Assembly: GCA_049303675.1 (NCBI GenBank)
Contig: JBAQNJ010000001.1
Coordinates: 821,443 to 885,442, forward strand
Direction: 5' to 3'
Length of the DNA stretch: 64,000 nucleotides
DNA from: Microgenomates group bacterium
Lineage (GTDB): Bacteria; Patescibacteriota; Microgenomatia; UBA12405
Shown: positions 11,265 to 33,640 of the stretch, in pieces
Position numbering within the stretch: the first letter of the stretch is position 1
Layout of the letters: each line of letters opens with the position of its first letter
Notes under the pieces: generated by a model
Told to the model about the DNA's origin: nothing
The model's database searches: none
Seen by the model: only the letters and a program-made list of their open reading frames with translations
Made by a program: the position numbers and the translations under genes

Positions 11265-11332
11265 ACTTGTTAGCTCAGTGGAACGATTTTCGAACTAAAA
11301 CCAATTTATCGGTGTGTAATTAAAAAGGAAAA

Positions 11333-11856: not shown

Positions 11857-11860
11857 AAGG

Positions 11861-11942: not shown

Positions 11943-11964
11943 AGATTGTTAAAAGAGCTCTATA

Positions 11965-12186
11965 TTATACATCCTTTCTCTCTCTACTTATCACCACCAA
12001 GTCACCTTCGCTAAGTTGGCCAGAGATGACACCTTTACCTCTCTCCATTTGAGCAAGGTCTGTTTTTTCAAATCTTTTTACAAGTGGTAACGGATCGCCG
12101 ACATTTGTATAACCTAGACTATATAAATAATCTCTCAAGGAAAATTTTCCGATACAATTATAGATAATTTTTGAATTTTCTATCAT
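11965..12186 (-). CDS. small hypothetical protein (~73 aa); paralog of 12341..12568
   Basis: ORF 11965..12279 truncated to the internal Met because its N-terminus is a translation of tRNA-Val; C-terminus '...GDLVVISRERKDV' is shared with the neighbouring paralog. Confidence 0.4.
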   Translation of the reverse strand: MIENSKIIYNCIGKFSLRDYLYSLGYTNVGDPLPLVKRFEKTDLAQMERGKGVISGQLSEGDLVVISRERKDV

Positions 12187-12188
12187 AG

Positions 12189-12261
12189 TGGCCGCTGAGG
12201 GACTCGAACCCCCGACCACCCCGATGTAAACGGGATGCTCTACCAACTGAGCTAAGCAGCC
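12189..12261 (-). tRNA. tRNA-Val (anticodon TAC)
   Basis: rc: GGCTGCTTAGCTCAGTTGGTAGAGCATCCCG-TTTACAT-CGGGG...GGGGGTTCGAGTCCCTCAGCGGCCA. Confidence 0.8.
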
Positions 12262-12340
12262 AAAGTGTGAAGTTGCCAACTGTGGGGTTTATCCCCAGTC
12301 CGAATGCTTTCGGACAGCTAAGCAGCCATGCTGCTGTATT

Positions 12341-12568
12341 TTACCAATCTTTATGTTCTCTGACTATTACCACCTGTCCTGCCTCAACGTGTTCAGGATA
12401 ATCAATTTTCTCTCTTCTCAAACCTGTAGCCCGCAATACATATGCCTCACCACTTTTAACATCCATAACTCCTACTCTCACAGAAAAATCCCCCAAACAC
12501 ACATCCAAAATTGCATCACACAAGCTTGATACCTTCATCTCTACGGCATTTGTTACACCCTTAATCAT
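12341..12568 (-). CDS. small hypothetical protein (75 aa); paralog of 11965..12186
   Basis: ORF; C-terminus '...AGQVVIVREHKDW' and ~60% nucleotide identity over the last ~40 nt with the neighbouring paralog. Confidence 0.4.
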   Translation of the reverse strand: MIKGVTNAVEMKVSSLCDAILDVCLGDFSVRVGVMDVKSGEAYVLRATGLRREKIDYPEHVEAGQVVIVREHKDW

Positions 12569-12571
12569 CTG

Positions 12572-12595
12572 AGCGAGAGACGGGACTCGAACCCG
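12572..12595 (-). pseudogene. tRNA-Gly 3' fragment (T-arm plus 3' acceptor), exact duplicate of the 3' end of tRNA-Gly(GCC) at 12866..12939
   Basis: rc 'CGGGTTCGAGTCCCGTCTCTCGCTC' identical to the 3' 25 nt of the intact gene; upstream sequence does not fold into D or anticodon arms. Confidence 0.55.
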
Positions 12596-12610
12596 TTGGC
12601 AGCCTGTCGC

Positions 12611-12862
12611 CTAAGGCGACTGCTCAACCAATTTAACTTTTAACCACTCACGACCCTTACCAGACTTTAAAGACTTTTCTCTTCTTAAGGCATCTATTCT
12701 CGTTGGCATATTTTCACCATAAATTAAATCAAATGGAAAAGTTAGTGAAGTATATTTGGATTTACCAGAATTATGTTCCGACATTCTTCTTTCAATATCG
12801 TTTGTCTGGCCTACATATAGTCGATTGTTTACCCGACTTTTAAGTACGTATACAGTAAACAT
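12611..12862 (-). CDS. GIY-YIG nuclease family protein (UPF0213/YhbQ-like)
   Basis: 'FTVYVLKSRVNNRLYVGQTNDIERRMSEHNSGKSKY' motif; paralog of 9479..9739. Confidence 0.75.
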   Translation of the reverse strand: MFTVYVLKSRVNNRLYVGQTNDIERRMSEHNSGKSKYTSLTFPFDLIYGENMPTRIDALRREKSLKSGKGREWLKVKLVEQSP

Positions 12863-12865
12863 TCT

Positions 12866-12939
12866 GAGCGAGAGACGGGACTCGAACCCGCAGCCTTCTC
12901 CTTGGCAAGGAGATGCTCAACCAATTGAGCTACTCTCGC
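12866..12939 (-). tRNA. tRNA-Gly (anticodon GCC)
   Basis: rc: GCGAGAGTAGCTCAATTGGTTGAGCATCTCC-TTGCCAA-GGAGA AGGCTGCGGGTTCGAGTCCCGTCTCTCGCT. Confidence 0.85.
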
Positions 12940-12943
12940 AATT

Positions 12944-12974
12944 CAGTTAACAGATTTCAGTTAACCGTTTACAG
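12944..12974. repeat. GTTAAC-core repeat, left flank of four-helix-bundle gene: CAGTTAACAG-ATTT-CAGTTAACCGTTTACAG
   Basis: read directly. Confidence 0.65.
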
Positions 12975-13344
12975 TTTTTAGCGACCTTATCAAACCGTAG
13001 AGTATTTTACCAGTTAAATCAGCCTGTGTTAATACCGGATTTACATCAAGTTTCGGATACAATTTATTAATAATTTTACATATTGCGACCACCTCAACCA
13101 GTGACTTTCTCGATATGCCCAAAAACTTAATGAAATCTCTTCTGCTGTCAGAAGCACTACCTTCAGCAATATTAATTGCCACCGATGTTGACGCTCTCCT
13201 GATCTGATCACCTAGACCATGCACTTCAAAACTAGGCAACAAAGTATGTAAAAGATATGAAAACTCTACTAACCTTACGGACTCTTCCCACACTTTTAAC
13301 TTTTCAAAATTCTGCATTTTCCTCTGTATACTGTTAACTGCCAT
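12961..13344 (-). CDS. four-helix-bundle protein (TIGR02436 / '23S rRNA intervening-sequence protein' family)
   Basis: 'LKVWEESVRL...LP..E.HGLGDQIRRASTSVAINIAEGS...FLGISRKSLVEV' family signature. Confidence 0.75.
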   Translation of the reverse strand: MAVNSIQRKMQNFEKLKVWEESVRLVEFSYLLHTLLPSFEVHGLGDQIRRASTSVAINIAEGSASDSRRDFIKFLGISRKSLVEVVAICKIINKLYPKLDVNPVLTQADLTGKILYGLIRSLKTVNG

Positions 13345-13359
13345 CCGTTAACTGTTTAG
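13331..13359. repeat. GTTAAC-core repeat, right flank of four-helix-bundle gene: CTGTTAACTG-CCATC-CGTTAACTGTTTAG (direct orientation relative to the left flank)
   Basis: read directly. Confidence 0.65.
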
Positions 13360-13432
13360 TGCCGAAAGTTGGACTCGAACCAACATCCCAGGTTTTTCAG
13401 ACCAGTGCCGTGACCATCTTGGCTATTTCGGC
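13360..13432 (-). tRNA. tRNA-Phe (anticodon GAA), copy 1
   Basis: rc: GCCGAAATAGCCAAGATGGTCACGGCACTGGT-CTGAAAA-ACCTG GGAT GTTGGTTCGAGTCCAACTTTCGGCA; anticodon stem has one U.U mismatch; 73/73 identical to the copy at 39464..39536. Confidence 0.65.
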
Positions 13433-13513
13433 TTAAGAAGTATTTGTATTATACAAAATAAAAATATTTTTGTTCTACTGTATTCTATCAACAGTTAACT
13501 GTTCGCTGTCGAG

Positions 13514-13595
13514 TGCCGTTGAGAGGACTTGAACCTCCACGCCTTGCGGCATACGCTTCTGAGACGTACGTGTATACCAATTTCACCACAACGGC
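13514..13595 (-). tRNA. tRNA-Leu (anticodon CAG)
   Basis: rc: GCCGTTGTGGTGAAATTGGTATACACGTACGT-CTCAGAA-GCGTA + long variable arm + GGAGGTTCAAGTCCTCTCAACGGCA. Confidence 0.8.
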
Positions 13596-13643
13596 AAATC
13601 AAGGTATTATCTCACGAAACAAATTCAGTTTTTATCTTTACAA

Positions 13644-14186
13644 CTATTTAATAACATCCTCAAACAGTTCTTTAGCGCTAAACACTAATGGCAATTTTAA
13701 AACCTCTTCACGAGTAAACCATTTTGCCTCAATTACTTTACTCTCAACATCATCTCTAGTTTCAGTTGTTTCAGATATAGTTTCAAAAAAGAAAATCACT
13801 CCATGATAATTATATTTTGGTGCAATTGCCTCTCTGAAGACTAAGAAACTTAGTTCCTTAGCCACAATTCCAGTTTCTTCCAATATCTCTCTTTTAGCCG
13901 CAATCTCCAGAGTTTCTCCAAATTCAACCTTACCTCCTGGTATTATCCAATAATCCTTGCCTCCTTCTAATGTTTCCCTAACTAACAAGAACTTGTTTTT
14001 ATTTCTTACCAACACGCCAACTATTACTTTTGGTTTCCTTTTTATCATTTCTAACTGAATCTTAGGCGGAATCGGCCGACAACTACACTCTCGGTTGTGA
14101 TCCGTATGCCACTGAATTCTCTCGTTCAAACTTGCCTTTTTAGGCATCTTGTTCTTCTGGTGCCACTCTTTATTTATCTTCGCCAT
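13644..14186 (-). CDS. NUDIX hydrolase with N-terminal Cys/His-containing extension
   Basis: Nudix box 'GGKVEFGETLEIAAKREILEETG'. Confidence 0.8.
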   Translation of the reverse strand: MAKINKEWHQKNKMPKKASLNERIQWHTDHNRECSCRPIPPKIQLEMIKRKPKVIVGVLVRNKNKFLLVRETLEGGKDYWIIPGGKVEFGETLEIAAKREILEETGIVAKELSFLVFREAIAPKYNYHGVIFFFETISETTETRDDVESKVIEAKWFTREEVLKLPLVFSAKELFEDVIK

Positions 14187-14218
14187 TATTTATTTTATAC
14201 CACTCTCTTTATCTCATC

Positions 14219-14292
14219 TGGAGCGGGATGGGGGAGTCGAACCCCCCATATCAGTTTGGAAAACTGAAGTTATACCGATTAACTAATCCCGC
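14219..14292 (-). tRNA. tRNA-Gly (anticodon TCC), CCA encoded
   Basis: rc: GCGGGATTAGTTAATCGGTATAACTTCAGT-TTTCCAA-ACTGA...GGGGGGTTCGACTCCCCCATCCCGCTCCA. Confidence 0.8.
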
Positions 14293-14382
14293 AACGTACA
14301 AATTACTTCATAATTTTACGTTGCAGAAACGTTAATTTGCAAAGCAAATTTTACGTTTCGCAAAATAAATTAAGGTGCAATC

Positions 14383-14442
14383 TAAGTCGGGCTATGCCTA
14401 GACTAAGTTCATAAGACATAGTCGGGCTACGCCTCGACAAAG
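14383..14442. repeat. two tandem ~24-bp direct repeats (TAAGTCGGGCTA[T/C]GCCT[A/C]GAC[T/A]AAG) between tRNA-Gly and tRNA-Pro
   Basis: read directly: 14383..14407 and 14419..14442. Confidence 0.6.
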
Positions 14443-14458
14443 CTCGTAGAGAGCGAAG

Positions 14459-14532
14459 TCGGGGATACTGGATTCGAACCAGCAACCTCACGGTCCCAAA
14501 CCGTGCGCGCTAGCCAATTGCGCCAATCCCCG
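14459..14532 (-). tRNA. tRNA-Pro (anticodon TGG)
   Basis: rc: CGGGGATTGGCGCAATTGGCTAGCGCGCACGG-TTTGGGA-CCGTG...GCTGGTTCGAATCCAGTATCCCCGA. Confidence 0.8.
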
Positions 14533-14557
14533 TTGCTCGTGTATTTTACACGAATTG

Positions 14558-14642
14558 TGCCGCCAGAGGGGATCGAACCCCCACGCTTGTTGAGAGCACA
14601 AGATTTTAAGTCTTGCGTGTATACCAATTTCACCATGGCGGC
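14558..14642 (-). tRNA. tRNA-Leu (anticodon TAA)
   Basis: rc: GCCGCCATGGTGAAATTGGTATACACGCAAGA-CTTAAAA-TCTTG + long variable arm + GGGGGTTCGATCCCCTCTGGCGGCA. Confidence 0.8.
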
Positions 14643-14691
14643 TAATTGTAGAATGTATTATATAATCAAAAGAACAATTTCCCAACAACCA

Positions 14692-15807
14692 ATGAGCAAA
14701 CCCCAATTCTTTAAAACCACCACCGGACTTCATATACCACTGCCAGTATTTTTCCCCGACGCTACCCGAGCCGTTCTCAAAACCCTCGACAGTGCCGATA
14801 TTGAGTCCACCAAAACTCAAGGAATACTAGTCAATACTTTTCATCTCAACAATTTCCCCGGAGGATCGGTTATAAAAGAACACAAAGGTGTCCGCAACTT
14901 TATGTCATGGAGTGGGGGAGTTATCTCCGATTCCGGTGGCTTCCAAGTTATGTCACTTGCCAAAACCCACGATGGCACCAAAAACCCAGTTTCTGACAAA
15001 GGAGTCAACTTTAAAATCCCCGGAACCAGCAAGAAAATTCTTTTTACCCCCAAAATGAGTATCGATTTTCAAATGCTTCTCAAAACTGATATGGTAGTAG
15101 TGCTTGACGATTTTACCGATCTTCAGGCCAACGAGGCCAAGCAACGAGAAACTGTCGAACGAACCGTTACTTGGGCGCGAGTTTGTAAAAAAATATTTGA
15201 CAAAAATTGCTCTGATCGCAAAATATCACCTGAATCTCGACCCTACTTACTCGGGGTTGTTCAGGGTGGTCACAACTTAGAATTACGTCGAGAATGTACC
15301 CAAAGATTGGTCGAAATTGGCTTTGATGGACTGGGCTATGGCGGTTGGCCCATGACCGACGATGGCGAATTTAATTTTGAAATACCCCGAGTTATTGGCG
15401 AAAATGTCCCCGATGATTATTTGCTCTATGGTCTAGGAGTAGGCAAACCACATGAAATAGTCCACATGGTCAAAATGGGCTGGAATGTCTTTGACTGTGT
15501 CCTACCCACTCGTGATGCCCGCCACAAACGACTCTATGTTTATGATGCCAAAACAATTGATGACATCGACTTGTCTACCGATAAATTTTATAAATATTTT
15601 GTCCCCGACAAGGAAATTCATTATCATGACCGCAATCCTGTCAGTACCGCCTGTGATTGTCTACTTTGCACTCGTTACGATCGTTCTTATCTTCGCCACC
15701 TATTTCAAATCGGCGATATGACAGCGGGCCGCCTCGCCACTATTCACAATCTACGTTTTTATTCTATTCTCATGGAGAAGCTACAACCAATTTATGAAAA
15801 AATTTAA
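14692..15807 (+). CDS. tgt: queuine tRNA-ribosyltransferase (tRNA-guanine transglycosylase)
   Basis: start trimmed to 'MSKPQFF' (ORF 14503.. overlaps three tRNAs); 'LYGLGVGKPHEIVHMVKMGWNVFDCVLPTRDARHKRLYV' and zinc site 'CDCLLCTRYDRSYLRHLF' (CxCxxC...H). Confidence 0.85.
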   Translation: MSKPQFFKTTTGLHIPLPVFFPDATRAVLKTLDSADIESTKTQGILVNTFHLNNFPGGSVIKEHKGVRNFMSWSGGVISDSGGFQVMSLAKTHDGTKNPVSDKGVNFKIPGTSKKILFTPKMSIDFQMLLKTDMVVVLDDFTDLQANEAKQRETVERTVTWARVCKKIFDKNCSDRKISPESRPYLLGVVQGGHNLELRRECTQRLVEIGFDGLGYGGWPMTDDGEFNFEIPRVIGENVPDDYLLYGLGVGKPHEIVHMVKMGWNVFDCVLPTRDARHKRLYVYDAKTIDDIDLSTDKFYKYFVPDKEIHYHDRNPVSTACDCLLCTRYDRSYLRHLFQIGDMTAGRLATIHNLRFYSILMEKLQPIYEKI

Positions 15808-16825
15808 TGCCATAAATTTTGGCTGTCGCGTCAATGCCGCCGAAACCAATCAATTATCCCAACAACTAATTGATCAAGGTTATACTTTTGACGATCAAAA
15901 TCCCGACACTATTATTGTCAACACCTGCGCCATAACCAAGAAAGGTGAATACGAATCAATTTATAATATAAAAAAAATATTAAAAGACAACCCAAACATT
16001 AAAATAATTGCCACTGGTTGTGCTAACCTAGAAAAATTAAAAGACCTCAAAAACGTTACCATCCTCAAAAATGTCGACAAGGACAAAATCCAATCCGTCT
16101 ACACTCCCCAAATCAGCGACAAATTTTCTCGCACCCATCGTTATATGCTCAAAGTACAATCCGGCTGTAGTGTCAATTGTACTTTTTGTATCGTCCCCAC
16201 CCGTCGCACCACCCTCAACTCTCTGTCTATCTCAGATGCTGTGAAAACAGTTAATACCGTCGTAGAAAACGGCTATACCGAAGTTATTATCACTGGTGTC
16301 AATCTGGCTCAATATCTCCCCAGCCTCGCCGATTTGGTAGAAGCACTGCTCACCCAAACCAAAATAAAATTAATTTCATTTGGTTCAGTCCCACTGCTTT
16401 GTATCAACGATAAATTCATTGATCTGTTAACTGTAAACCGTTCACGGTTAACTGACTTTCTCCACATTCCTCTTCAATCAGGATCAAATAAAATCTTAAA
16501 ATTAATGCACCGCCCATATCATAAAGAAAAAATACTCAATACCTTTAAATTACTAACTTCCCCCCTTGTTAAAGGGGGGACCGAGGGGGGATTGAAATTC
16601 GGGACCGACATCATCGTCGGCTTCCCCACCGAAACTGACTCCGACTTTCAAGAAACTTATAATTTATGCCAATCTTTAGGTTTTTCTAAAATTCATGTTT
16701 TCCGCTATTCTCCCCGCCCCGACACACCTGCTCGAGAATTGTTCCTCAAAAGTGCTAAAATCCCTAAAACCGTCATTTTAGAAAGGTCAAAACTACTCCG
16801 TCAACTAACACCAACAAATATATGA
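15794..16825 (+). CDS. radical-SAM methylthiotransferase (MiaB/RimO family), N-terminal MTTase domain plus radical SAM core
   Basis: 'IIVNTCAITKKGE' MTTase N-domain; 'CSVNCTFC' CxxxCxxC; no TRAM domain within this ORF; contains an in-frame GTTAAC-repeat copy and a GC hairpin. Confidence 0.75.
   Translation: MKKFNAINFGCRVNAAETNQLSQQLIDQGYTFDDQNPDTIIVNTCAITKKGEYESIYNIKKILKDNPNIKIIATGCANLEKLKDLKNVTILKNVDKDKIQSVYTPQISDKFSRTHRYMLKVQSGCSVNCTFCIVPTRRTTLNSLSISDAVKTVNTVVENGYTEVIITGVNLAQYLPSLADLVEALLTQTKIKLISFGSVPLLCINDKFIDLLTVNRSRLTDFLHIPLQSGSNKILKLMHRPYHKEKILNTFKLLTSPLVKGGTEGGLKFGTDIIVGFPTETDSDFQETYNLCQSLGFSKIHVFRYSPRPDTPARELFLKSAKIPKTVILERSKLLRQLTPTNI
16434..16467. repeat. GTTAAC-core repeat copy inside the methylthiotransferase coding sequence (CTGTTAACTGTAAACCGTTCACGGTTAACTGAC), in frame
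   Basis: read directly; encodes '…LLTVNRSRLTDF…'. Confidence 0.6.
16561..16579. repeat. GC hairpin with TGTTAA loop (CCCCCT-TGTTAA-AGGGGGG) inside the methylthiotransferase coding sequence
   Basis: read directly; encodes 'PLVKGG'. Confidence 0.55.
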
Positions 16826-17106
16826 AAGTCCATATCGCTTCACTCCACTATGCCAGCCTCGAGAACACCCATCCCATTCCCGCCGTCACTATCAAAAAAA
16901 TAGATATTCCCACAGCCAGAACATTTAGATTCGGCCAAGGCCAAATTTTACATATCGGAAGAGATCCGTTTACTATCAGCGCTCAGGTCATTGTTGACGA
17001 CGAACTAGTCAGGCGTGAAGCCTCCGGTACACCCCTAGATATTTACCAAATGACCTTCCACACCAGAGACCCAAAAAAAGTTAAAGTCGTCTCCATCTTC
17101 CCCTAA
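16822..17106 (+). CDS. possible detached TRAM-like C-terminal segment of the upstream methylthiotransferase (ATGA overlap; split or frameshifted gene?)
   Basis: 94-aa ORF starts with ATG overlapping the upstream stop; weak TRAM-like pattern '...IGRDPFTISAQVIV...'; speculative. Confidence 0.3.
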   Translation: MKVHIASLHYASLENTHPIPAVTIKKIDIPTARTFRFGQGQILHIGRDPFTISAQVIVDDELVRREASGTPLDIYQMTFHTRDPKKVKVVSIFP

Positions 17107-18192
17107 TCATCTTCCAAACCACACTTCCATCTCATCAAACACCTCATATTTAAAAGACACTTCTTGACCCGCAAATCGGGCACCCTGACCCCAGACAAAA
17201 GCCCGCGCCACATCCTCACTCATCTGTGTCGATAATTTATTGAGTACATCTTTTAACGTCTGACCTCGGTGCATTATCAACGGTTCTTTTCTATCTGGTT
17301 CACTCGTTCGTTCCCTCTTTAAATAAACCCTAACCAATCCTAATTTTCTCCACACTGCTTCCTTAAATTCATCAATTCCCATATTTTTATCAGCACTCAT
17401 GTAAAGTCTATTTTCCACCTTTTCCTTCCTCAAATTTGGCTTGGTATCAATTTTGGTCACAATCTCCAACAGAGGAATATAGGTTCTTGATTTACTCAAC
17501 CCATCTATAAATCGGTCAATTGTCTCTACCTTTTCACCCAATTGAATTAGGGCACTTTCAAATCCCATCTCTGAGGCTATTTGCTCTAATTGTTCCATCG
17601 GTAAAATACTAAACGGATCCAATATCCGTAGGCCACCTTTACTGACTCGATTTATAATTATTTTTGGTGGCTGTTGATTTGGCCGCACCCCTGCCTGTTC
17701 CATTTCTTTTTTTATTTTATCTATCCATGCAATTCTATCAATATCAGCCATTAGTATCACCATATCTGATGCTCGGACCACCGACAACACCTTGCGACCA
17801 AAACCTTTGCCTGTCGCCGCCCCCTCAATAATCCCAGGTAAATCCAACATTTGGATGTTTATACCTTTGTATTCCATCATCCCTGGGATTACCCCCAGAG
17901 TAGTAAAGTCATAATTTCCCACCTTTGATTCAGCATTGGTCACTGCATTGAGTAGCGTCGATTTACCCACTGATGGCAGTCCCACCAACACCACCGAAGC
18001 GTCACCCGAATGTTTGATGGCATAGCCCACACCCCCGCCACCTCCAGTTAATTTGGCATCCAACATGTCCTTAAGCCGTGATAGTTTTGCCTTCAATACC
18101 CCATGATGAAATTGGCTACTCTTGTCATAAGGAGTATCCCGCAGCTCTTTCTCCACTGCCTCAATTTTTTTATTAATTTCTTCTGGAATCAT
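17107..18192 (-). CDS. DRG-family (developmentally regulated GTP-binding protein-like) Obg-class GTPase with C-terminal TGS domain
   Basis: strong resemblance to DRG across 'HHGVLKAKLSRLKD...GGGGGVGYAIKHSGDASVVLVGLPSVGKSTLLNAVTN...YDFTTLGVIPGMMEYKGINIQMLDLPGIIEGAATGKG'; TGS-like C-terminus. Confidence 0.8.
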   Translation of the reverse strand: MIPEEINKKIEAVEKELRDTPYDKSSQFHHGVLKAKLSRLKDMLDAKLTGGGGGVGYAIKHSGDASVVLVGLPSVGKSTLLNAVTNAESKVGNYDFTTLGVIPGMMEYKGINIQMLDLPGIIEGAATGKGFGRKVLSVVRASDMVILMADIDRIAWIDKIKKEMEQAGVRPNQQPPKIIINRVSKGGLRILDPFSILPMEQLEQIASEMGFESALIQLGEKVETIDRFIDGLSKSRTYIPLLEIVTKIDTKPNLRKEKVENRLYMSADKNMGIDEFKEAVWRKLGLVRVYLKRERTSEPDRKEPLIMHRGQTLKDVLNKLSTQMSEDVARAFVWGQGARFAGQEVSFKYEVFDEMEVWFGR

Positions 18193-18209
18193 CTGATAAA
18201 ATAGAGAAC

Positions 18210-19553
18210 ATGTTGGTTCTAATACTAATAATTACTTTTTTCCTAAACTACAGTCCTATTTTAGCATCTGAACGCAATATTTTTGGTCTCCACTTAACTC
18301 AAACCAACGATATCTATTCTGCGGCCAAAATAATTAATTCGAGTAACGGCGACTGGGGCTATGCCACCATTGTTATCCGACTCGACCAGCTCAATCGCCA
18401 AAATTGGCAGGAGTTTATGAATAATTGCCGTAAATTCCATATTATACCTATAATCAGATTGGCCACTATCATGGAAAATAATTATTGGAAAAAGCCAGAA
18501 ACTTCCGATATCGATAATTTGGCCTCTTTTCTCAATTCACTCAATTGGCCCACCCAAGAGCAACATATAATATTATTTAACGAAACCAATCACGGTTCCG
18601 AATGGAGTGGGGGAGTCGATGTTAAGTCATTTACCGACATTTCTATCTATACCTATCAAAAATTAAAAAGTCTAAATTCAAATTTTGTGGTAATTAGTGG
18701 TGCTCTAGACCTTGCCGCACCAAATAAAAACAGTGAATTTAAATCAGCTACGGACTTCTTTAAAGAAATTTACACTTATCGTCCCGAATATTTTGACAAT
18801 CTCGATGCTCTGGGCAACCACTATTATCCGCAAAACAGTCCCCGTGATTATAACTGGGAATTAGGACTTCTAAAAAAGCTTGGGGTAAAAAAAACTTTTC
18901 CAGTTTACATTACCGAAACCGGCTGGCCTCATCGCGAGGGCGAGACCAAAAATAACCAATACTTTCTCGCCCAAACATCGGCCAATCTGTTAATCAAATC
19001 TCTAGCTACATGGCAAAAAGACCCCCGAGTTGTGGCGGTTACCCCATTTATTTTCAACTATCCCTTCGAACCATTTGACCACTTTTCTTGGGTTGATAAA
19101 AATGAAAATCTATTGCCAGCTTATCAATCAGTCGTTAATAATCCCAAACAAAAAAATACTCCTTCTCAAATTACCTCTTATGAAATCACTAGCAATCGCT
19201 TGCCATTTATCATTTTAACCGACTCAGAATACTTGGGCGAAATATCAATAAAAAATACTGGCCAATCAATTTGGGGAGAGACTAATTTTTGCTTGCCCCC
19301 TGACTCCACCCCCAATGTCACCATTGATCAAATTTGTACTACCAATAATTTTGTTTATCCCAACCAAATTGAAAAATTCTCTTATAAATTAAAAATAAAA
19401 AATATACCCGATTACAAGGAAAAAACATTTATCAGTTGGCAGGGATTACCTCCTCTAGAAATCACTCCCTTGAATGGAGAAGGCACTATCTATAGTCCTA
19501 AGTTGACACCGCTGCAAAGGTTAGTTCAATATTTCCAAAGCTGGTTTATTTAA
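18210..19553 (+). CDS. secreted glycoside-hydrolase-like TIM-barrel protein (GH5-like?)
   Basis: signal/TM N-terminus; 'ILFNETNHG' (acid/base-like NE[PT]) and 'VYITETGWPH' (nucleophile-like) motifs; family assignment uncertain. Confidence 0.45.
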   Translation: MLVLILIITFFLNYSPILASERNIFGLHLTQTNDIYSAAKIINSSNGDWGYATIVIRLDQLNRQNWQEFMNNCRKFHIIPIIRLATIMENNYWKKPETSDIDNLASFLNSLNWPTQEQHIILFNETNHGSEWSGGVDVKSFTDISIYTYQKLKSLNSNFVVISGALDLAAPNKNSEFKSATDFFKEIYTYRPEYFDNLDALGNHYYPQNSPRDYNWELGLLKKLGVKKTFPVYITETGWPHREGETKNNQYFLAQTSANLLIKSLATWQKDPRVVAVTPFIFNYPFEPFDHFSWVDKNENLLPAYQSVVNNPKQKNTPSQITSYEITSNRLPFIILTDSEYLGEISIKNTGQSIWGETNFCLPPDSTPNVTIDQICTTNNFVYPNQIEKFSYKLKIKNIPDYKEKTFISWQGLPPLEITPLNGEGTIYSPKLTPLQRLVQYFQSWFI

Positions 19554-19593
19554 ACCAAATTATACTTATTACTGATAAAATACAGTTGATTTG

Positions 19594-19666
19594 TCCTCGT
19601 AGCTCAGTTGGATAGAGCGCTTCCCTTCTAAGGAAGAGGTCATTGGTTCGATCCCAATCGAGGATA
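19594..19666 (+). tRNA. tRNA-Arg (anticodon TCT)
   Basis: GTCCTCGTAGCTCAGTTGGATAGAGCGCTTCC-CTTCTAA-GGAAG AGGTC ATTGGTTCGATCCCAATCGAGGATA. Confidence 0.8.
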
Positions 19667-19667
19667 C

Positions 19668-19739
19668 TAAACAGTTGACAGATTACAGTTTACAGAAAAA
19701 ATCTCTGTTAACTGACAACTGTAGACTGTAAACTGATTA
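19668..19739. repeat. cluster of CAGTT[A/G]AC / ACAGTTTACAG / CTGTAAACTG words between the two tRNA-Arg genes (GTTAAC-core repeat family)
   Basis: read directly: 'aaacagttgacagattacagtttacagaaaaaatctctgttaactgacaactgtagactgtaaactg'. Confidence 0.6.
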
Positions 19740-19811
19740 GCGCCTATAGCTCAATGGATAGAGTACCAGTCTTCGGAACTGGTGATGAGGGTCCGATTCC
19801 CCCTGGGCGTA
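19740..19811 (+). tRNA. tRNA-Arg (anticodon TCG)
   Basis: GCGCCTATAGCTCAATGGATAGAGTACCAGT-CTTCGGA-ACTGG...; acceptor stem has two G.U pairs. Confidence 0.7.
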
Positions 19812-19833
19812 CATATTAATTACAAATTAAAAA

Positions 19834-19850
19834 TTACGAATTACGAATTG
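19834..19850. repeat. ATTACGAATTACGAATT motif (reverse complement of the AATTCGTAATTCG repeat seen at 47.03 and 52.07 kb)
   Basis: read directly. Confidence 0.6.
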
Positions 19851-19899
19851 TTAGGTGTTTTTTGTTGATTTGTAAATTATAATCAGTAATTAACAATTT

Positions 19900-19972
19900 G
19901 GGTCGTTAGCTCAGTCGGTAGAGCAATCGCCTCTTAAGCGATTGGTCGTGAGTTCGAGTCTCACACGACCCA
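19900..19972 (+). tRNA. tRNA-Lys (anticodon CTT)
   Basis: GGGTCGTTAGCTCAGTCGGTAGAGCAATCGC-CTCTTAA-GCGAT...GTGAGTTCGAGTCTCACACGACCCA; TATAAT ~18 nt upstream. Confidence 0.85.
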
Positions 19973-19987
19973 CTAGGTAATTTCATT

Positions 19988-20069
19988 GCCGCAGTGGTGA
20001 AATTGGTATACACGTACGCTTTAGGAGCGTATACCGCAAGGTGTGGAGGTTCAAGTCCTCTCTGCGGCA
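19988..20069 (+). tRNA. tRNA-Leu (anticodon TAG)
   Basis: GCCGCAGTGGTGAAATTGGTATACACGTACGC-TTTAGGA-GCGTA + long variable arm + GGAGGTTCAAGTCCTCTCTGCGGCA; followed by T-run. Confidence 0.8.
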
Positions 20070-20090
20070 CTTTTTTTGCTACACTATTTT

Positions 20091-25320: not shown

Positions 25321-25394
25321 GAGTCTATAGCTCAGTTGGCTAGAGCGTCTCATTGACATTGAGAAGGTCAGAGGTTCAAGTCCTCTTAGACTCA
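25321..25394 (+). tRNA. tRNA-Val (anticodon GAC)
   Basis: GAGTCTATAGCTCAGTTGGCTAGAGCGTCTCA-TTGACAT-TGAGA AGGTC AGAGGTTCAAGTCCTCTTAGACTCA. Confidence 0.85.
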
Positions 25395-27063
25395 CTAGAG
25401 AATACATCGGGTAGTTTATACACCTTTGTGAATATCGGATTTAGCGTATAGTTGGTAACTTTCTTATCTTTAATAGTAAAGTTCAAGAACACTTTTCTTA
25501 GTATAAAATCTAGCTGTCTCAGTGCCTTAGCTTTTTCCACTTCCTGTGGGATAATCTTTACTAGTTCAAGAAATTCATCAAAGGTCTTTGGAATCCGTTT
25601 TGATATCTCTAATTCATACCGAACTCTTTTTAATTCACCTTTGACTTCTGCCAGCCTATCTTCCATTTTAGTCAAATCACCTTCATAACTTTCAACCAAT
25701 CTCCTTTTATCACGCTGTTTCTCGTACCGCAAAATGTACTGCCTAATTGTCAATGCCTGTTTCTCTTTTTGACTTTCCTCAGCCGAAAGCGATCGTCTCA
25801 TACTATCCAATTCTTTAATTTTTTCCTCAGATGCCACCTTAAATTCCTTTTTGTATTCCTCATATCCCTCCTCGACTTTTATTGTAGCCCTCTTTAACAA
25901 ATCAGTAGCAAAATTCACCACTACTTTTGCCCGAACTGACTTATTGTGAAAAATGCAACCCTCTGTTTCGCAACGGAAATAAAATCGATTTACTTTTTGT
26001 TTTGTATGATGGGAAATCCCTGTCGACATTTCCTCTCCACAGTACCCACAAACAACTCTCTGCCTAAGCAAGTCCGCCTTTACAGTCCCGCCTCTTCTCG
26101 CCACAAATGCACCCCCGACCTTACCACCATTTACTTGTAAAAATTGGTCAGGTGTAACCATTGGTCGAAAATCATAAAAATCACCCAAGATACAAACCCT
26201 TGGGATGTTTTCTCCATAACTTAAGACTCCCTCATAAATTGGATTCTTTAACATCCTTGACACCATCTGTTTATCAAAGACACACAACTGATGTTTACCT
26301 CCACCAGTACCAACGGCCATTTTATATTTTTTACTATTCAAATATTCGGCAATTTCTTTCTCTCCTGTTTTGTCCAATCTCATAAACCATGCCTGTTTAA
26401 TATATGCCCAATATTTATCATCTGGCCTCAAAAATCCATTCGCATCCTTATAGTAACCATGTTTCGTTCGATTCAACTGTTTCCCTTTTTTAAGAGCATT
26501 ATTAATGCCTCTTATAACCGATTCTGAAAGATGGTCAGTATATTGTTTAGCCATTACAAACAACATCCCCAACAAAGTTTTGCCTGAAGGATTGTTCTCA
26601 AACTTAACTGTTTTGAATTGTAAATCTTTAATGATTCCCCGATCCAACAAATCAATAATTTCCCCCGCCTCCTTCAAGTTCCGACTTAGCCTGTCAGGGT
26701 GCCAAGATATAATACCGTCAATCTACCCGCCTTAATATCTTCAAGCATTTTCGAAAATAACGGTCTAATACCCGATTCTTTAGCCGACTCTGATTCCTGA
26801 ATTATTCTCTCGTCTTCCTTCCCTGAAATTAGCTTCAAATCCCTATCTTTTACTATTTCCAAACATTCCTCTACTTGAGCTGGTAGCGACTCCACCTGAT
26901 TATCTTTCTCGTCTGTCGACTTACGGGCATAAATCACATACCTAAAACTGTTTGGGTCAATTTTTTCTAACCTAGCGTTCATTATCTCACCAATTTCCTG
27001 AGCCAACTCCACCACTGTCATTGCTCCCTGTTTTTCCCCTATAGTATTATTTTCATTATTCAC
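25376..27063 (-). pseudogene. large serine recombinase (resolvase catalytic domain, recombinase domain, zinc ribbon, coiled coil) interrupted by a -1 frameshift at ~26722-26724
   Basis: N-terminal ORF 26686..27063 has 'YARKSTDE...'; C-terminal ORF 25376..26677 (TTG start) has the recombinase domain and Cys4 ribbon ('CGYCG...C..C'). My hand translation shows the conserved '...KAGR|IDGIISWHPDRLSRN' motif split between two frames; the 3' end overlaps tRNA-Val by 19 nt. Confidence 0.7.
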
Positions 27064-27320
27064 TAAATCAGTATAAAACTCCTACTCACCTAAATCAAAG
27101 ATTCGCCAGCGAAAGCTAAAAGTCGTCTCAGTACCCACAACAGACCATCTCCATCACATCACCAAAACCCATAGGTCTAACATAAATATAATTTCCCATA
27201 CTAATATCACCACGCGAAATATCCTCAATTGCAGTGGCAATATTTTCATTCGCCTAGCGAATCCTATTAGAGAAAACACACAAATCGGTCTCTAATTCTG
27301 CGACCCAAAATTATTATCTT

Positions 27321-27944
27321 CTATTTCCCTTTCCCTTTATCTCCACGTCTTTTTAATCCAGATGTATTTGGCGTTACCCTCCATCCCATAATTGAACCAT
27401 CAACTGCACTTAAATCAAAGGGGGGATTGCTCCCGTCAGGAGTCACGTCGGAAAGTAGAGTCAACTCTCCATTTTTTTTACCAACACACGTCAAGTGTAA
27501 ATTTGTCTGACCAGCTTCATCCTCAACTGTACAAAGGGCTAAATACCTGCCCCCCGCATCAATCGTTTTATCTATTTCCGCAATTGTACAATCTTCAAAA
27601 ATAAACTTGTGATCTCTTAAGCCCATGCCAAAATCCGTATCAGTTTTTCTCATCCTACCAATATACTGATGTATTTTTCCGATCTCGGTGTCTAGTTCTG
27701 GAAACTCACCTTCTAAACTTTTTATCTCACTTACCGCCATACCTCTCTCCAAAAGTGTTTTTCGTGTTGACATCAAGTTAGCAGCCCCCTTTAACATATC
27801 CCCATACCTTTCAACAATAGAGTCAGTATCTGGTTGAACTCCCACCGCAGTACCTAATGCCTTTGGCACACAAGCTTTTTCGGTTGCCCTTTGAAGAATT
27901 GATCCCTTCCCTAAATTTTCAATAAAAACCTTGGTACTTACCAT
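27321..27944 (-). CDS. hypothetical protein (207 aa)
   Basis: ORF only; Lys/Gly-rich C-terminal tail. Confidence 0.4.
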   Translation of the reverse strand: MVSTKVFIENLGKGSILQRATEKACVPKALGTAVGVQPDTDSIVERYGDMLKGAANLMSTRKTLLERGMAVSEIKSLEGEFPELDTEIGKIHQYIGRMRKTDTDFGMGLRDHKFIFEDCTIAEIDKTIDAGGRYLALCTVEDEAGQTNLHLTCVGKKNGELTLLSDVTPDGSNPPFDLSAVDGSIMGWRVTPNTSGLKRRGDKGKGK

Positions 27945-28054
27945 ATAGTATTATATCATAAAGTCCTATAACATTTCATGATCTCCATAAAATAGGCCTG
28001 GCTAAAAAACTCAACGGCAAACCACATTCAATATTTAGACCAATTACTCATGCA

Positions 28055-28375
28055 TCAGAAAGCATCTGTTACACCAACAGATAAAATTGTTGGAATTTTG
28101 TTTACAGGGGGAACAGGTAAAGGGGGAGAGATTGGGGTAACTTTTGGAACCCTTGGCACAGGCTTAACTGAATATAATGCCCTTAAAATGTAGTCTCCGT
28201 CCAAATAACCCCTATAATCTCCAGATCTGTCCCAAACCAAATTCCCTTCTATCCATCCCAAATATTCACCATCTCTAGAAAACAAATAGTCTCCTTGTAT
28301 AAAACCTAAATAAATTCCATTTGATTTAAAAATATATTTCATATTATATGTTTTCCTTTCTGATAAGGGCTTCAA
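28055..28375 (-). CDS. repeat protein with ~4 copies of an 11-12-aa 'G-x-Y-L-G-x-I-x-G' motif and a Pro-rich C-terminus
   Basis: 'NGIYLGFIQGDYLFSRDGEYLGWIEGNLVWDRSGDYRGYLDGDYIL'; overlaps the upstream protease gene by 32 nt. Confidence 0.4.
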   Translation of the reverse strand: MKPLSERKTYNMKYIFKSNGIYLGFIQGDYLFSRDGEYLGWIEGNLVWDRSGDYRGYLDGDYILRALYSVKPVPRVPKVTPISPPLPVPPVNKIPTILSVGVTDAF

Positions 28376-29060
28376 CTTTTATCTCAGGCTCCGAATGTGA
28401 GGGAATATATGCACATGGAACAGCATAGCCTATCCCCAATTGTAGATTATCTATGATAGCTCTATATATTGAAATTGTGTCAACTCCCCAAACAGAAGAT
28501 GCCCCATTTGGCATTCTTTCAACCATGGTCAACAAATTAGATTGTTCACGCCTCTTTGCATTGATCACACCAATGACATTACCATCTGAATTCATTAGGG
28601 GGCAACCACTATTTCCGCCATTAACTGTACCGTCTACTAAGTAGTTTGTAATTCCAGCAGCATCCTTAATTATTGCAGCTAATATACCCTGATGAGTGGT
28701 TAAGGAAAATAAATCAAGTGGAAAACCAGAATAAATAACAGTCATCCCTTCAGAAATATTTTCTGCACTAGCCTGCATGAGTGGCATGTGGGAATCATCT
28801 GTAACCTGCAATAATGCAAGATCGTGCTCTTCATCTCTCAATAAAATCTTCGCTGGTTTTGGATCCTGTTCATCAGAAAACTTAACCAACGCCGCACCCC
28901 CGCCAGTATTTGACACAACATGATTACAAGTAACAATAATTCCTGGCCTATGAAAAACAAAACCACTACCCTTACTTTTAGTTCTATTACTTTCATCAAC
29001 TATCAGTACCAAAACAACACTCGGCTTAATTTTTGCAACCACGGAAGAGAAACCATTCAT
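28344..29060 (-). CDS. trypsin-like serine protease domain protein (S1 family)
   Basis: catalytic triad context: 'VTCNHVV' (His), 'HDLALLQV' (Asp), 'GNSGCPLMNSDGNVIGV' (Ser). Confidence 0.7.
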   Translation of the reverse strand: MNGFSSVVAKIKPSVVLVLIVDESNRTKSKGSGFVFHRPGIIVTCNHVVSNTGGGAALVKFSDEQDPKPAKILLRDEEHDLALLQVTDDSHMPLMQASAENISEGMTVIYSGFPLDLFSLTTHQGILAAIIKDAAGITNYLVDGTVNGGNSGCPLMNSDGNVIGVINAKRREQSNLLTMVERMPNGASSVWGVDTISIYRAIIDNLQLGIGYAVPCAYIPSHSEPEIKVEALIRKENI

Positions 29061-29313
29061 CAGACTTATGATATCACCTCATTGTGGTTTTTAAACTTGT
29101 TTGACCGTTATATAAAATGGATAAAAATGATATAGGATAAGTTTTTGGACCAAGTTCCGTTTTCAGTCAAACCCCTACGGTACCCCGACGGCACCCGCCA
29201 CATAGATTTTAGGAAGAGGGAAGTGGTCTAACTAGTTTTTACTACCCCAACCATCCACCATACCTCATTTAGCTTCAAACAATGCAAAACGACTCACTAA
29301 TGAGCCATTACCT

Positions 29314-29592
29314 TTACCCAAACATAGTTGGTATATAGCTGTTACCTAGTTCAAGAAACTTTATGTTATTGATTATGCCTTCTTCTTTTAGGTCAACAAC
29401 TACGCCACCTACGCCAAAAACTTGACCTGTCTTCAAACCATCACCACTGGACATTCCGCCACCAGTACCACTTAAAGTTGTTTTGATTTCATATAAGTTT
29501 AATTTATCGATAAGTTCGTACAAATCATTACTTTGATACATTTGTTTATTGATTAATCTACTAACTCCCCGATTATAACACCACTGGTGCAA
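29314..29592 (-). CDS. hypothetical Gly-rich small protein (92 aa)
   Basis: ORF only. Confidence 0.3.
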   Translation of the reverse strand: MHQWCYNRGVSRLINKQMYQSNDLYELIDKLNLYEIKTTLSGTGGGMSSGDGLKTGQVFGVGGVVVDLKEEGIINNIKFLELGNSYIPTMFG

Positions 29593-29739
29593 ACTGATTT
29601 TCTAGCTCTTTATAGCCACCACTGATATAATCAGACAGGCTGATATTAAACTCTTCCACTTTTTCTAGGTTACTAAAAGCAAAATTAAAAAGTTCAAGAA
29701 CAGTATCATTACCCTCACTGAACCTAATCTAGAATTGCT

Positions 29740-29815
29740 AGAGCGGTCCGAAAGCTTTCGGACAGGTCAGAGGGAAGTTTATCCACCTGTGACGGAAGCC
29801 CTGTCAGATTCACAA
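29740..29815 (+). ncRNA. candidate structured RNA / leader: perfect palindrome GGTCCGAAAGCTTTCGGACAGG followed by CAGG...CCTG and GACAGG...CCTGTC pairings
   Basis: read directly; lies 5' of a small ORF whose annotated ATG (29735) is inside the structure; no T-run after the first hairpin. Confidence 0.3.
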
Positions 29816-29818: not shown

Positions 29819-30064
29819 ATGCCTAAAAGAAACTTATCGTTACAATTCGAATGTGGAGAGGTAGTGTCAGGAGAACTAATAACCGGCACCGAAATTCAAT
29901 ACGGTATTGGTGGAATTTATAGACGAAGTCAACTACTAAACACTTACTTATCTCACACAGAAGTACACCAAGCTGAAATAGCAACAATACTAGATGGGGA
30001 AACTCCCATTGGAACAGTAACTCGTACTATCGGTGGTGCAAACTTTAGTTTCACCACTACCTAG
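29819..30064 (+). CDS. hypothetical small protein (81 aa)
   Basis: ORF 29735..30064 trimmed to the internal Met after the palindrome; followed by a strong terminator. Confidence 0.35.
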   Translation: MPKRNLSLQFECGEVVSGELITGTEIQYGIGGIYRRSQLLNTYLSHTEVHQAEIATILDGETPIGTVTRTIGGANFSFTTT

Positions 30065-30085
30065 CCCATTCGTGGGTAGTTTTTG
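30063..30085 (+). terminator. rho-independent terminator (CCCATTCGTGGG + TTTTT)
   Basis: read directly. Confidence 0.6.
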
Positions 30086-30139
30086 TATCCACTAACTGGG
30101 CCATCCGATTTCTTCTTATTTATTCTATAATATTCCTAT

Positions 30140-31930
30140 ATGTCACAAAATGACGCCTTACAACACAATGACGACAATCTCTACAAAATCCGCCATAGCG
30201 CCGAGCATATCCTGACGGAGGCCATGCAGCGAGTTTTTGGCGCCGACAAGTTTTTTATGGCCATGGGGCCAGCCACCGATGATGGTTTTTATTTTGATTT
30301 CGAACCACTTGGCGATTTCAAAATTTCTGAAACAGATTTTCCGGCAATTGAAGCCGAAATGACTAAAATAGTCAAAGAAAATTTACCTATAGTTAGGTCC
30401 GAAATTAGTCTAGAAGAAGCCAAAAAAATGTTTGTCAATAATCCTTATAAAATGGAATGGCTCGAGTCAATTAAGGACCGCGATGAAGTTATTTCGATTT
30501 ATAAAACCGGCGACGAATTTGTCGATCTTTGTGCCGGCCCTCATGTCAATTACACCGCCAAAGTCAAGGCCTTTAAACTACTCTCTATCGCCGGTGCCTA
30601 TTGGCACGGCGATGAAAAAAACAAAATGCTCACCCGTATCTACGGCACCGCCTTTGAGAATAAAGAAGAGTTGGCCAAATTCGTCACCAATCTCGAAGAA
30701 GCCCACAAAAGAGACCATCGAAAATTGGGTAAAGAACTAGGTCTATTCACTTTTTCTGAATTAATTGGTAGTGGATTGCCACTTTATACTCCCAAAGGGG
30801 CTCTGATCAGGCTAGCTGTCAATAATTACGTCGAAGAAACCCAAAAAAAACAAGGTTATACTCAAGTTTGGACACCTCAAATAGCCAAGGCTAAGCTGTT
30901 TCAAGTCTCTGGTCACTATGACAAATACAAAGACAGCATGTTTAGAGTGGTCAGCAACTATTCCGATGAAGAATTTTTTCTCAAGCCAATGAATTGTCCC
31001 CAGCATACCCAAATATATGCCTCAGAGGCCCATAGCTATCGTGATTTACCACTTCGCTTTGCCGATTTTGCCATGCTATATCGAGATGAAAAACCTGGGG
31101 AATTAAATGGCCTAGCTCGAGTCCGTGCCTTTTCCCAAGACGACTGTCATATTTTTTGTCGTGAAGATCAAGTCGACGCCGAAATTGATATGGCTCTACA
31201 AATGACCAAAGAAATTATGGGGACTTTTGGACTCAAGTATAAATATCGCCTGTCCACCCGCGATCCCTCTCATCCTGAAAAATATTTAGGTGACCCAAAA
31301 ATTTGGGATAAGGTAGAAAAATGGGCTGTCGATATTATGAAGCGCAATCATATTGAATATTTTGATGGCCCAGGTGAAGCCGCTTTCTATGCTCCCAAAA
31401 TGGACTTAATCGCCACCGATGCTCTTGGTCGAGAATGGCAATTATCTACAGTTCAAATCGATTATGTCATGCCCGAAAGATTTGGTCTAGAATACACCGC
31501 TGCCGATGGCACCAAGCAGCGTCCTATCATGCTCCACCGAGCTATCGTTGGCTCACCCGAGCGTTTTATGATGATCATGATTGAACATTTCGCTGGTGCA
31601 TTTCCAGTTTGGCTATCCCCAGTCCAAGCTAAAATTATTCCTATTACCGATGCCCAGCATGGGTATGCACGGACTGTCGAAGCAGAATTAAGAGCAAGCA
31701 ACATTAGGGTAGAAATTGACGATCGCTCCGAAAAAATGCAGGCCAAAATTCGCGATGCCCAGATGCAAAAGATTCCCTTTATGCTGGTTATTGGTGGCCG
31801 CGAAGCCGACTCTGACTCTGTGGCTGTCCGTCAACGCGACGGCCAAGACCTCGGCGCTGTCAAAGTTGATCAATTTTTATCCCAAATTAAGGATTTAATT
31901 AACACAAAGTCTCTTAATCTGATAAAATAA
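30140..31930 (+). CDS. thrS: threonyl-tRNA synthetase
   Basis: class II aaRS core, 'HRKLGKELGLF', C-terminal anticodon-binding domain; 596 aa (no N-terminal TGS domain). Confidence 0.9.
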   Translation: MSQNDALQHNDDNLYKIRHSAEHILTEAMQRVFGADKFFMAMGPATDDGFYFDFEPLGDFKISETDFPAIEAEMTKIVKENLPIVRSEISLEEAKKMFVNNPYKMEWLESIKDRDEVISIYKTGDEFVDLCAGPHVNYTAKVKAFKLLSIAGAYWHGDEKNKMLTRIYGTAFENKEELAKFVTNLEEAHKRDHRKLGKELGLFTFSELIGSGLPLYTPKGALIRLAVNNYVEETQKKQGYTQVWTPQIAKAKLFQVSGHYDKYKDSMFRVVSNYSDEEFFLKPMNCPQHTQIYASEAHSYRDLPLRFADFAMLYRDEKPGELNGLARVRAFSQDDCHIFCREDQVDAEIDMALQMTKEIMGTFGLKYKYRLSTRDPSHPEKYLGDPKIWDKVEKWAVDIMKRNHIEYFDGPGEAAFYAPKMDLIATDALGREWQLSTVQIDYVMPERFGLEYTAADGTKQRPIMLHRAIVGSPERFMMIMIEHFAGAFPVWLSPVQAKIIPITDAQHGYARTVEAELRASNIRVEIDDRSEKMQAKIRDAQMQKIPFMLVIGGREADSDSVAVRQRDGQDLGAVKVDQFLSQIKDLINTKSLNLIK

Positions 31931-33139: not shown

Positions 33140-33640
33140 ATGCAACTAGAAGAAATAAAAAAAGAAATAGAAAAATGTTCAACGGCAGCTGATTTGGAAA
33201 ATATTCGTATAAAATATCTAGGTAGAACTGGTCTAATTAATGCCGAATTTTCCAAAATAAAGTCTGCCCCAGACCATAAACTTTTTGGTATAGAGTTAAA
33301 TGAATTAAAAAAATCAGTTGAAGAATTAATCGAAACAAAAAATTCTTCCCTTGGTCACGAAATAAAATCAATCAAAAAAAATATATCAGTAGCTTCAATA
33401 AAAAAAATCGGACATTTACATCCTTTAACAATAACTGAGCGTCAACTCAACGAAGTTTTCCGCAAACTAGGCTTCTCCATCTACAATTCTCCTGAGATTG
33501 TCACTGATGAGTACAATTTTGAGCGCCTGAATGTCCCCAAAAATTACCCTGCCCGTGACATGAAAGAGATTGGACCCATTACAATTATCAAAGTTGAAAT
33601 AGCAGATAATATCTCGACAATATTTTACGAATTAAAATAA
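33140..33640 (+). pseudogene. pheS: phenylalanyl-tRNA synthetase alpha subunit, N-terminal 141 codons only (homology ends after 'NYPARDM' at ~33563; tail is unrelated)
   Basis: 'LENIRIKYLGRTGLIN' and 'GHLHPLTITERQLNEVFRKLGFSIYNSPEIVTDEYNFERLNVPKNYPARDM' align to PheS residues ~25-155; the catalytic core and pheT are absent from the window. Confidence 0.7.

Follow-up and report, generated by a model that had tools for sequence, protein, structure and literature searches.

We describe here a large serine recombinase (LSR) gene that meets the 3' end of a tRNA-Val(GAC) gene in a 64,000-nt stretch of a Microgenomates group bacterium genome (assembly GCA_049303675.1, contig JBAQNJ010000001.1, positions 821,443 to 885,442), hereafter called the window and numbered from its own first letter. 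The gene is split between two reading frames. We favour, with a probability of about 0.8, the reading that this recombinase was the integrase of an integrative island of ~4.4-4.7 kb sitting at the 3' end of tRNA-Val(GAC) and that it became a pseudogene through a genuine deletion of one nucleotide.

Six-frame translation showed that the minus-strand recombinase is broken after the AGA codon at 26724-26722. The N-terminal open reading frame (ORF), of 125 aa, terminates in LEDIKAGRLTVLYLGTLTG followed directly by a stop codon, and the -1 frame, which reads IDGIISWHPDRLSRNLKEAGE immediately after a stop codon, remains open until a TGA at 25378-25376. At the frame switch base 26722 is used twice, in AGA and in the ATT of the continuing frame, and fusion of the two frames at AGA gives a protein of 562 aa. 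These frames match a hand translation in a preliminary description of this DNA, which had placed a -1 split at ~26722-26724 and had the C-terminal ORF start on TTG; both points were borne out, the latter by the TTG at 26677 in the ORF list. Annotations differ in the start that they give to this C-terminal ORF, either the TTG (26677) for a product of 433 aa or an ATG for one of 392 aa. The true start of the recombinase itself is probably ATG 27021 and not GTG 27063, because the ATG is preceded by GGGAG and agrees with the N-termini of homologues.

Once the translation is repaired, Pfam detects a Resolvase domain (PF00239) that runs unbroken across the junction, from residue 43 to 195 and over profile positions 2-144 of 145 (E=4e-22). 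It is followed by the Recombinase domain (PF07508; 32.2 bits against a cut-off of 21.1) and then by Zn_ribbon_recom (PF13408), which at 23.9 bits lies slightly below its cut-off of 25.3 and whose four cysteines (C339, C342, C365 and C370) do not vary across the aligned homologues. A K/E-rich stretch occupies residues ~400-480 of the repaired protein. The best PHROG match is phrog_95, “integrase” (2e-50), and the only match by sequence in the PDB is 3g13, to the catalytic domain (E=3e-6). In the alignment of homologues Y45, R47, S49, Q56, D124, R125, L126 and R128 fit columns that are at least 90% conserved. The junction coincides with the N-terminal edge of a block, G113..G117 I118..H122 P123 D124 R125 L126..R128 N129, that is likewise conserved in at least 90% of the aligned homologues.

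The position of the break bears directly on catalysis. In Bxb1 the essential residues are R8, S10, Q22, D81, R82, L83 and R85 (PMC12884075). The R-x-S nucleophile motif of the window gene (R47, S49) lies within the N-terminal ORF, and its D124-R125-L126-x-R128 motif falls in the 15 codons 26722-26678, after the TAG and before the first possible ATG, GTG or TTG start (TTG 26677). The DRLSR catalytic motif is therefore translated in neither ORF, and neither fragment nor both together can be catalytically complete. We infer from this arrangement that the cell has no way to make a catalytically competent recombinase and that the island is now fixed in its position. Elsewhere the gene has hardly changed. 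Of the 128 columns that at least 13 of 14 homologues share, the split gene keeps 116, and the 12 changed ones are mostly conservative substitutions (R/K, L/M, T/S, M/I, F/Y). Because the remainder is almost undamaged, the inactivation is probably recent. Judged by its sequence the recombinase is a pseudogene of the LSR family and not a functional member of it, and the annotation should mark one pseudogene in place of two “recombinase family proteins”. Among the readings offered in the preliminary description, that of a decaying integrase or fossil element is the one supported.

Could the fragments nevertheless serve the cell? The C-terminal ORF might still be made as a non-catalytic protein that binds the attachment (att) site or the tRNA gene, or the two pieces might reassemble. 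The 433-aa ORF indeed carries no further lesions, keeps its conserved residues and holds the DNA-binding Recombinase and zinc-ribbon domains together with the K/E-rich stretch, but a recent pseudogene would equally be free of further lesions. The annotations share no start codon for it and we saw no clear ribosome-binding site; reassembly could not restore catalysis, as D-R-L-x-R is absent from both pieces. We consider such an exaptation very unlikely.

It is very improbable that the gene is whole in the cells and that the lost base is an artefact of sequencing or assembly, as the preliminary description had also proposed. The closest relative (P0002), an intact protein of 530 aa with 60% identity that likewise sits on a tRNA-Val(GAC), reads GCG GGG AAA ATT GAC GGT where the window has GCG GGT AGA/TT GAC GGT, a loss of one nucleotide. 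The deleted form of the site reads GGTAGATTGAC and a form with intact frame would read GGTAGAATTGAC. Single-base indels are common in metagenome-assembled genomes (MAGs), a single population stands behind all assemblies of this DNA, and another truncated gene, pheS, lies 7 kb off. Against this, the frameshift site (GGGTAGATTGAC) contains no homopolymer run. The window DNA with its frameshift is also 100% identical in a contig of GCA_049287145.1 and in the k-mer-based Logan assemblies SRR28062879 and SRR28062869, three DNA records that were compared directly over 2-21 kb including the junction. Both split ORFs are present in these Logan assemblies, which come from separate runs; a second NCBI assembly (998,299-bp contig) has the 125-aa and 433-aa pieces annotated as separate proteins. 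Since the split recurs in these four assemblies, the two Logan ones among them being built from separate runs, an assembler artefact is an unlikely cause.

The remaining suggestion of the preliminary description, a programmed -1 ribosomal frameshift (or transcriptional slippage) giving a regulated low level of full-length integrase, is hardly tenable: the required direction is -1 and a Shine-Dalgarno-like AAGGCGGG lies immediately upstream of the site, but the sequence (G GGU AGA UUG) offers neither an X_XXY_YYZ heptamer nor a homopolymer for transcriptional slippage, the only slip allowed by the TAG directly 5' of the junction in the -1 frame is that of a P-site tRNA-Arg from AGA to UAG, where re-pairing is impossible, the 83 nt downstream are no better folded than shuffles (minimum free energy -14.6 kcal/mol vs a mean of -16.7, z=+0.76), and no homologue has the split, not even the 60% relative, which occupies the same tRNA. 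Among the matches listed, 119 other homologues are unsplit proteins of 530-606 aa, and tblastn matches at the 80 genome loci considered below are for the most part contiguous across the frameshift site.

A genuine 1-nt deletion thus remains our preferred cause of the split, and the surroundings of the gene point to an inserted element. The last 20 nt of tRNA-Val (25376-25395), read antisense, form the last codons of the recombinase (..S E S K R T) and its TGA stop; counting the stop codon the overlap is 19-20 nt, in agreement with the 19 nt given previously. In relatives of the threonyl-tRNA synthetase (ThrRS) from metagenomes (56-86% identity) the order DUF5660 protein, tRNA-Val(GAC), thrS is kept, and in eight of them (L088, L093, L095, L096, L097, L099, L137 and L148) the tRNA lies 20-50 nt before thrS, with only a TTCTATAAT-type box separating the two. 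In the window 4,819 nt separate the start of tRNA-Val from thrS and the intervening DNA amounts to 4.7 kb. Because of the 20-50-nt spacer of the eight relatives, the segment from 25396 to ~30100 is an insertion; the preliminary description had suggested a comparison with relatives lacking such a segment, and this comparison confirms it.

The far end of this insertion is less clear-cut. The preliminary description had suggested that the stretch from 27 to 30 kb be searched for an att repeat derived from the tRNA-Val 3' end, and none is present intact. Exact and mismatch-tolerant scans with the tRNA-Val 3' end, as well as Smith-Waterman alignment over 27-30.2 kb, gave nothing above shuffled controls: no repeat of at least 14 nt with at most 2 mismatches was found, and the best 20-mer (14/20) is at the level of chance. 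What we did find at 29738-29813 is a degenerate relic of tRNA-Val. Two of its segments, CTAGAGCG from the D arm and AGGTCAGAGG from the variable loop and T stem (10/10), match tRNA-Val exactly and with collinear spacing. The anticodon arm is replaced by an 18-nt palindrome, and the T-loop holds an insert of ~22 nt followed by AAGCCCTGTCAGATTCAC, which matches the tRNA 3' end at 14 of 18 positions. A relic ~82% identical to this one is found in the relative L098 (3870-3928), 8 nt after tRNA-Val. An Rfam scan of 25.0-30.3 kb returned the tRNA only, with no match for the relic, and its fold is unremarkable (z=-1.4). The relic most likely marks where the recombinase element ends distally, in which case the element would extend over ~25376-29800 (~4.4 kb). 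Inspection by eye for inverted-repeat symmetry of the putative P and P' arms revealed nothing convincing. Comparison of the acceptor stems between the window and L001 did not show which part of the tRNA is element-derived, since in each of them the two strands of the stem match.

We then turn to the relatives of the recombinase, 80 genome loci (L006-L085; 30-57% identity) that come nearly all from MAGs of Patescibacteria, the candidate phyla radiation (CPR). The contig end cuts 11 of the 80, leaving 69 that can be assessed. In 61 of these the recombinase ORF enters the 3' end of an antisense tRNA gene; in L033 it overlaps an antisense tRNA-Val just beyond our counting window, in L062 and L079 an antisense tRNA-Pro lies 90-240 nt further downstream of the ORF, and an antisense tRNA is wholly absent in only five. 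The abutment to a tRNA is a property of the clade and not a peculiarity of the window locus. The target is most often tRNA-Pro (39 loci), followed by Val (8), Leu (4), Asp (3), Arg and Gly (2 each) and Ala, Glu and Lys (1 each). The modal overlap is either 20-22 nt, in which case the TGA comes from the antisense T-loop, or 56-58 nt, and the C-terminal tails are unconserved translations of antisense tRNA (..GLEPLT.., ..RIRTE..). Three relatives, L078 (1722-2789), L079 (966-2081) and L062 (3870-5117), give a partial protein match although the contig continues, with an antisense tRNA ~90-430 nt past the apparent stop; on this pattern they are probably further interrupted copies.

Several members of the clade carry a clean repeat of the kind sought in the window. 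The 3' end of the tRNA recurs as an exact copy of 18-22 nt, 3.2-5.1 kb upstream, in L015 (1144/6203), L028 (2342/5477) and L045 (3923/7593), as a 13-nt copy ~5.5 kb upstream in L026 (2007/7539) and as a 16/18 match ~5.6 kb upstream in L085 (371/5913); the controls of this repeat search gave one match each. In L015, L028, L045 and L026 identity breaks off at one shared T-loop position (..GGACTCG/AACC, the slash marking the point), to within 1-2 nt. At the far end of the L028 element (2342-2425) there is a pseudo-tRNA-Pro into which 56 nt are inserted, precisely where the crossover in the T-loop is placed, the same architecture as that of the relic in the window. The elements delimited by repeats measure 3-6 kb and carry genes for DUF4352, helix-turn-helix, EEP-nuclease with HD, peptidase S51 and DUF2806 proteins; phage or conjugation genes were not found in them. 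A scan of IMG/VR (2.9 million viral contigs) with the family alignment found no relatives of the recombinase, though these are common in Patescibacteria MAGs. On the strength of such comparisons, the balance tips modestly towards a Patescibacteria-wide LSR clade that would target the tRNA T-loop site-specifically, with an attP half-site formed by a replacement tRNA 3' end overlapping the last integrase codons, and that would mobilise non-viral cargo islands of 3-6 kb.

One may picture the mechanism as follows. The circular element would carry attP, whose integrase-proximal half-site would copy the terminal ~20 nt of the tRNA that is targeted and overlap the last integrase codons. The serine recombinase would cross over in the T-loop, the stem lending attB a natural dyad symmetry, and would join the host 5' part of the tRNA to the 3' part supplied by the element; the tRNA would be rebuilt and the host 3' end displaced to the far junction. 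Where the antisense T-loop provides no stop codon the ORF would end in host sequence, and its tail would differ between the free and the integrated form. In the window the frameshift would have removed the only recombinase and, with the distal site degenerate, the island would be fixed; its defence-like cargo may explain why a fixed island is retained.

Several points weigh against this reading of the window. No intact attR repeat was found in it, and the relic may be a displaced host fragment, an arm of the element itself or the scar of an older event. The G+C content of the island (0.35-0.39) does not set it apart from its flanks. The crossover in the T-loop is extrapolated from clade members that sit on other tRNAs, and the integration activity of those members is itself predicted. 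Finally, the assemblies that share the frameshift represent one population and probably one study, and it is possible that sequencing erred systematically or that a minority of cells carries an intact allele.

Table 1. Coordinates of the recombinase fragments, the tRNA-Val(GAC) target, the putative distal end and the cargo, in window numbering.
Feature	Position	Strand	Basis or remark
tRNA-Val(GAC), intact	25321..25395 (ARAGORN); 25321-25394 (Rfam, 72.3 bits)	+	
C-terminal ORF: end of catalytic domain, Recombinase, Zn ribbon with four conserved Cys, K/E-rich stretch, C-terminal tail	25376..26677	-	
15 codons IDGIISWHPDRLSRN bearing the D-R-L-x-R motif, in the C-terminal frame	26678..26722	-	
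Frameshift point	26722..26724	-	Codon alignment with the closest intact relative
N-terminal ORF, 125 aa, with Y-A-R-K-S-T nucleophile motif (S49) and 11-codon out-of-frame tail	26686..27063	-	ORF list, sequence, alignment
Promoter-like site TTGATT-17-TATACT, 5' of the recombinase	27070..27098	-	Consensus match only
207-aa hypothetical protein, cargo	27321..27944	-	No family match
4-fold beta-flower (Bflower, PF21784) protein, cargo	28055..28375	-	NCBI call of 95 aa, 28055-28342
Trypsin-like serine protease (Trypsin_2), cargo	28344..29060	-	Pfam, PADLOC, PHROGs
92-aa hypothetical protein, cargo	29314..29592	-	
tRNA-Val-derived relic	29738..29813	+	Collinear matches to the tRNA
81-aa ORF and terminator-like hairpin (30064-30077 and T-run, to 30090)	29819..30090	+	Between the relic and the thrS promoter
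thrS, host gene that follows tRNA-Val(GAC) where the site is empty; outer bound of the insertion	30140..31930	+	

The genes carried by the insertion are listed in Table 1. PADLOC and PHROGs gave matches for the protease only and none for the ORFs of 207, 106, 92 and 109 aa; the best PADLOC matches of the protease are protease modules of the defence proteins RT-Protease_XI (5e-21), LmuA and PDC-M35A. It is possible that the protease and the Bflower protein form a two-gene defence or conflict module carried as cargo. The protease gene runs into the beginning of the downstream Bflower gene when the latter is read in its longest possible frame (28055-29060, minus strand). At the other end, the 81-aa ORF and hairpin that precede thrS are absent from the empty-site relatives, and the hairpin also occurs in a ~430-nt insert of the relative L086.

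Across the loci L086-L165 the spacer between tRNA-Val(GAC) and thrS proved to be a variable hotspot: besides the eight relatives with an empty site there are others in which it measures 0.2-6.1 kb and holds unrelated genes. None of these other inserts has a recombinase. We considered whether they could be decayed copies of the window island; mostly they are not. Insert genes were scanned in L090 and L098 only, where they encode PMT_2 glycosyltransferases, GH8 and RadC, and the inserts of L090, L091, L092, L139 and L141 have one gene in common. Short stretches of DNA are held in common with the window only in the inserts of L098 (the relic) and L086 (the terminal hairpin).

Further features lie elsewhere in the window. 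The pheS gene (33140-33640, plus strand) is truncated to 166 aa, which cover the N-domain and ~60 positions from the start of the class II core, compared with 327-334 aa in relatives; its missing C-terminal half was not found anywhere in the 64 kb, and it is followed by a 493-aa HprK-like/Ldh_1_N ORF. Fourteen of the 16 tRNA genes of the window lie in its first 20 kb (783-20070), 13 of them in two loose clusters at 11.8-14.6 kb and 19.6-20.1 kb, and an Arg-Arg-Lys-Leu tRNA cluster is syntenic with relatives.

As a lone pseudogene the split integrase is ordinary, and the frameshift alone shows a stranded island; the context of the clade matters more. The value of the gene lies in being an entry point to a clade of serine integrases that behave like tyrosine integrases targeting tRNA genes. 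One earlier statement is that serine integrases were not known to use tRNA genes as their targets (PMC4383910). Mageeney et al. (2020) found that tRNA genes are used by 14 of 297 predicted serine integrases (4.9%) versus 44.5% of tyrosine integrases, described such use by serine integrases as not reported before and called for experimental proof (PMC7192596). In the same work the near-absence of serine integrases at tRNA genes served to argue that the mechanism of the tyrosine enzymes drives the preference (PMC7192596). Durrant et al. (2022) do not mention tRNA. A search for serine integrase or recombinase together with tRNA and Patescibacteria or CPR returned nothing relevant in the searchable literature, a description elsewhere being possible. 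The preliminary description had called the overlap with the tRNA the usual geometry of tRNA-integrated elements; this holds for tyrosine integrases and for the present clade (61 of 69 loci) but not for serine integrases generally (PMC4383910, PMC7192596). If our reading of the clade were correct, LSRs found at tRNA 3' ends in ~90% of assessable loci, with repeats bounded at the T-loop, would be a natural counter-example to this argument on tyrosine enzymes, and would represent a convergent serine-recombinase version of the strategy that links tyrosine integrases to tRNA genes. The clade would also be a source of compact integrases whose natural attB sites are highly conserved, and it points to a route by which minimal islands with defence-like cargo may move in the ultra-small genomes of the CPR.

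Compared with known systems, the repaired recombinase has the make-up of phiC31, Bxb1, A118, TP901-1, CcrA/B/C and XisF: a Resolvase domain with serine nucleophile and D-R-L-x-R motif, a Recombinase domain and a four-cysteine zinc ribbon, in ~550 aa. As with characterised LSRs, the direct repeats in its relatives stop abruptly, here in the T-loop. The similarity to these enzymes is however only distant (71 bits against a cut-off of 375 for the NCBIfam XisF model, with the Ccr models far below their cut-offs), and whereas characterised LSRs typically use protein-coding or intergenic targets, this clade sits at tRNA genes, the window gene being moreover frameshifted. In its layout the island resembles the tRNA islands of tyrosine integrases (Islander/TIGER; the T-loop sublocation class of Williams 2002), in which an intact tRNA gene borders the integrase gene at one end of the island and relatives lack the island. 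As in those islands a tRNA-derived fragment, here degenerate, lies at the probable far end, and the displaced tRNA 3' copy of clade members reaches the T-loop. Unlike in those islands the enzyme belongs to the unrelated serine family and its ORF physically enters the tRNA gene.

The island also recalls “grounded” or defective prophages and islands, in which a single lesion inactivates the integrase and the recognisable distal att site is lost while the cargo is kept. It differs from grounded prophages in being tiny (~4.5 kb), in carrying no phage or conjugation genes and in residing in a Patescibacteria genome of ~1 Mb. A further likeness is to the archaeal integrases of the SSV1 type, where the att site overlaps the integrase coding sequence and integration alters the ORF past the crossover; in several clade members the stop codon indeed lies past the repeat, in tRNA sequence that would be derived from the host. 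The SSV-type enzymes, however, are tyrosine recombinases whose gene is split in two upon integration, whereas here integration would affect no more than a short C-terminal tail, a few residues long and not conserved.

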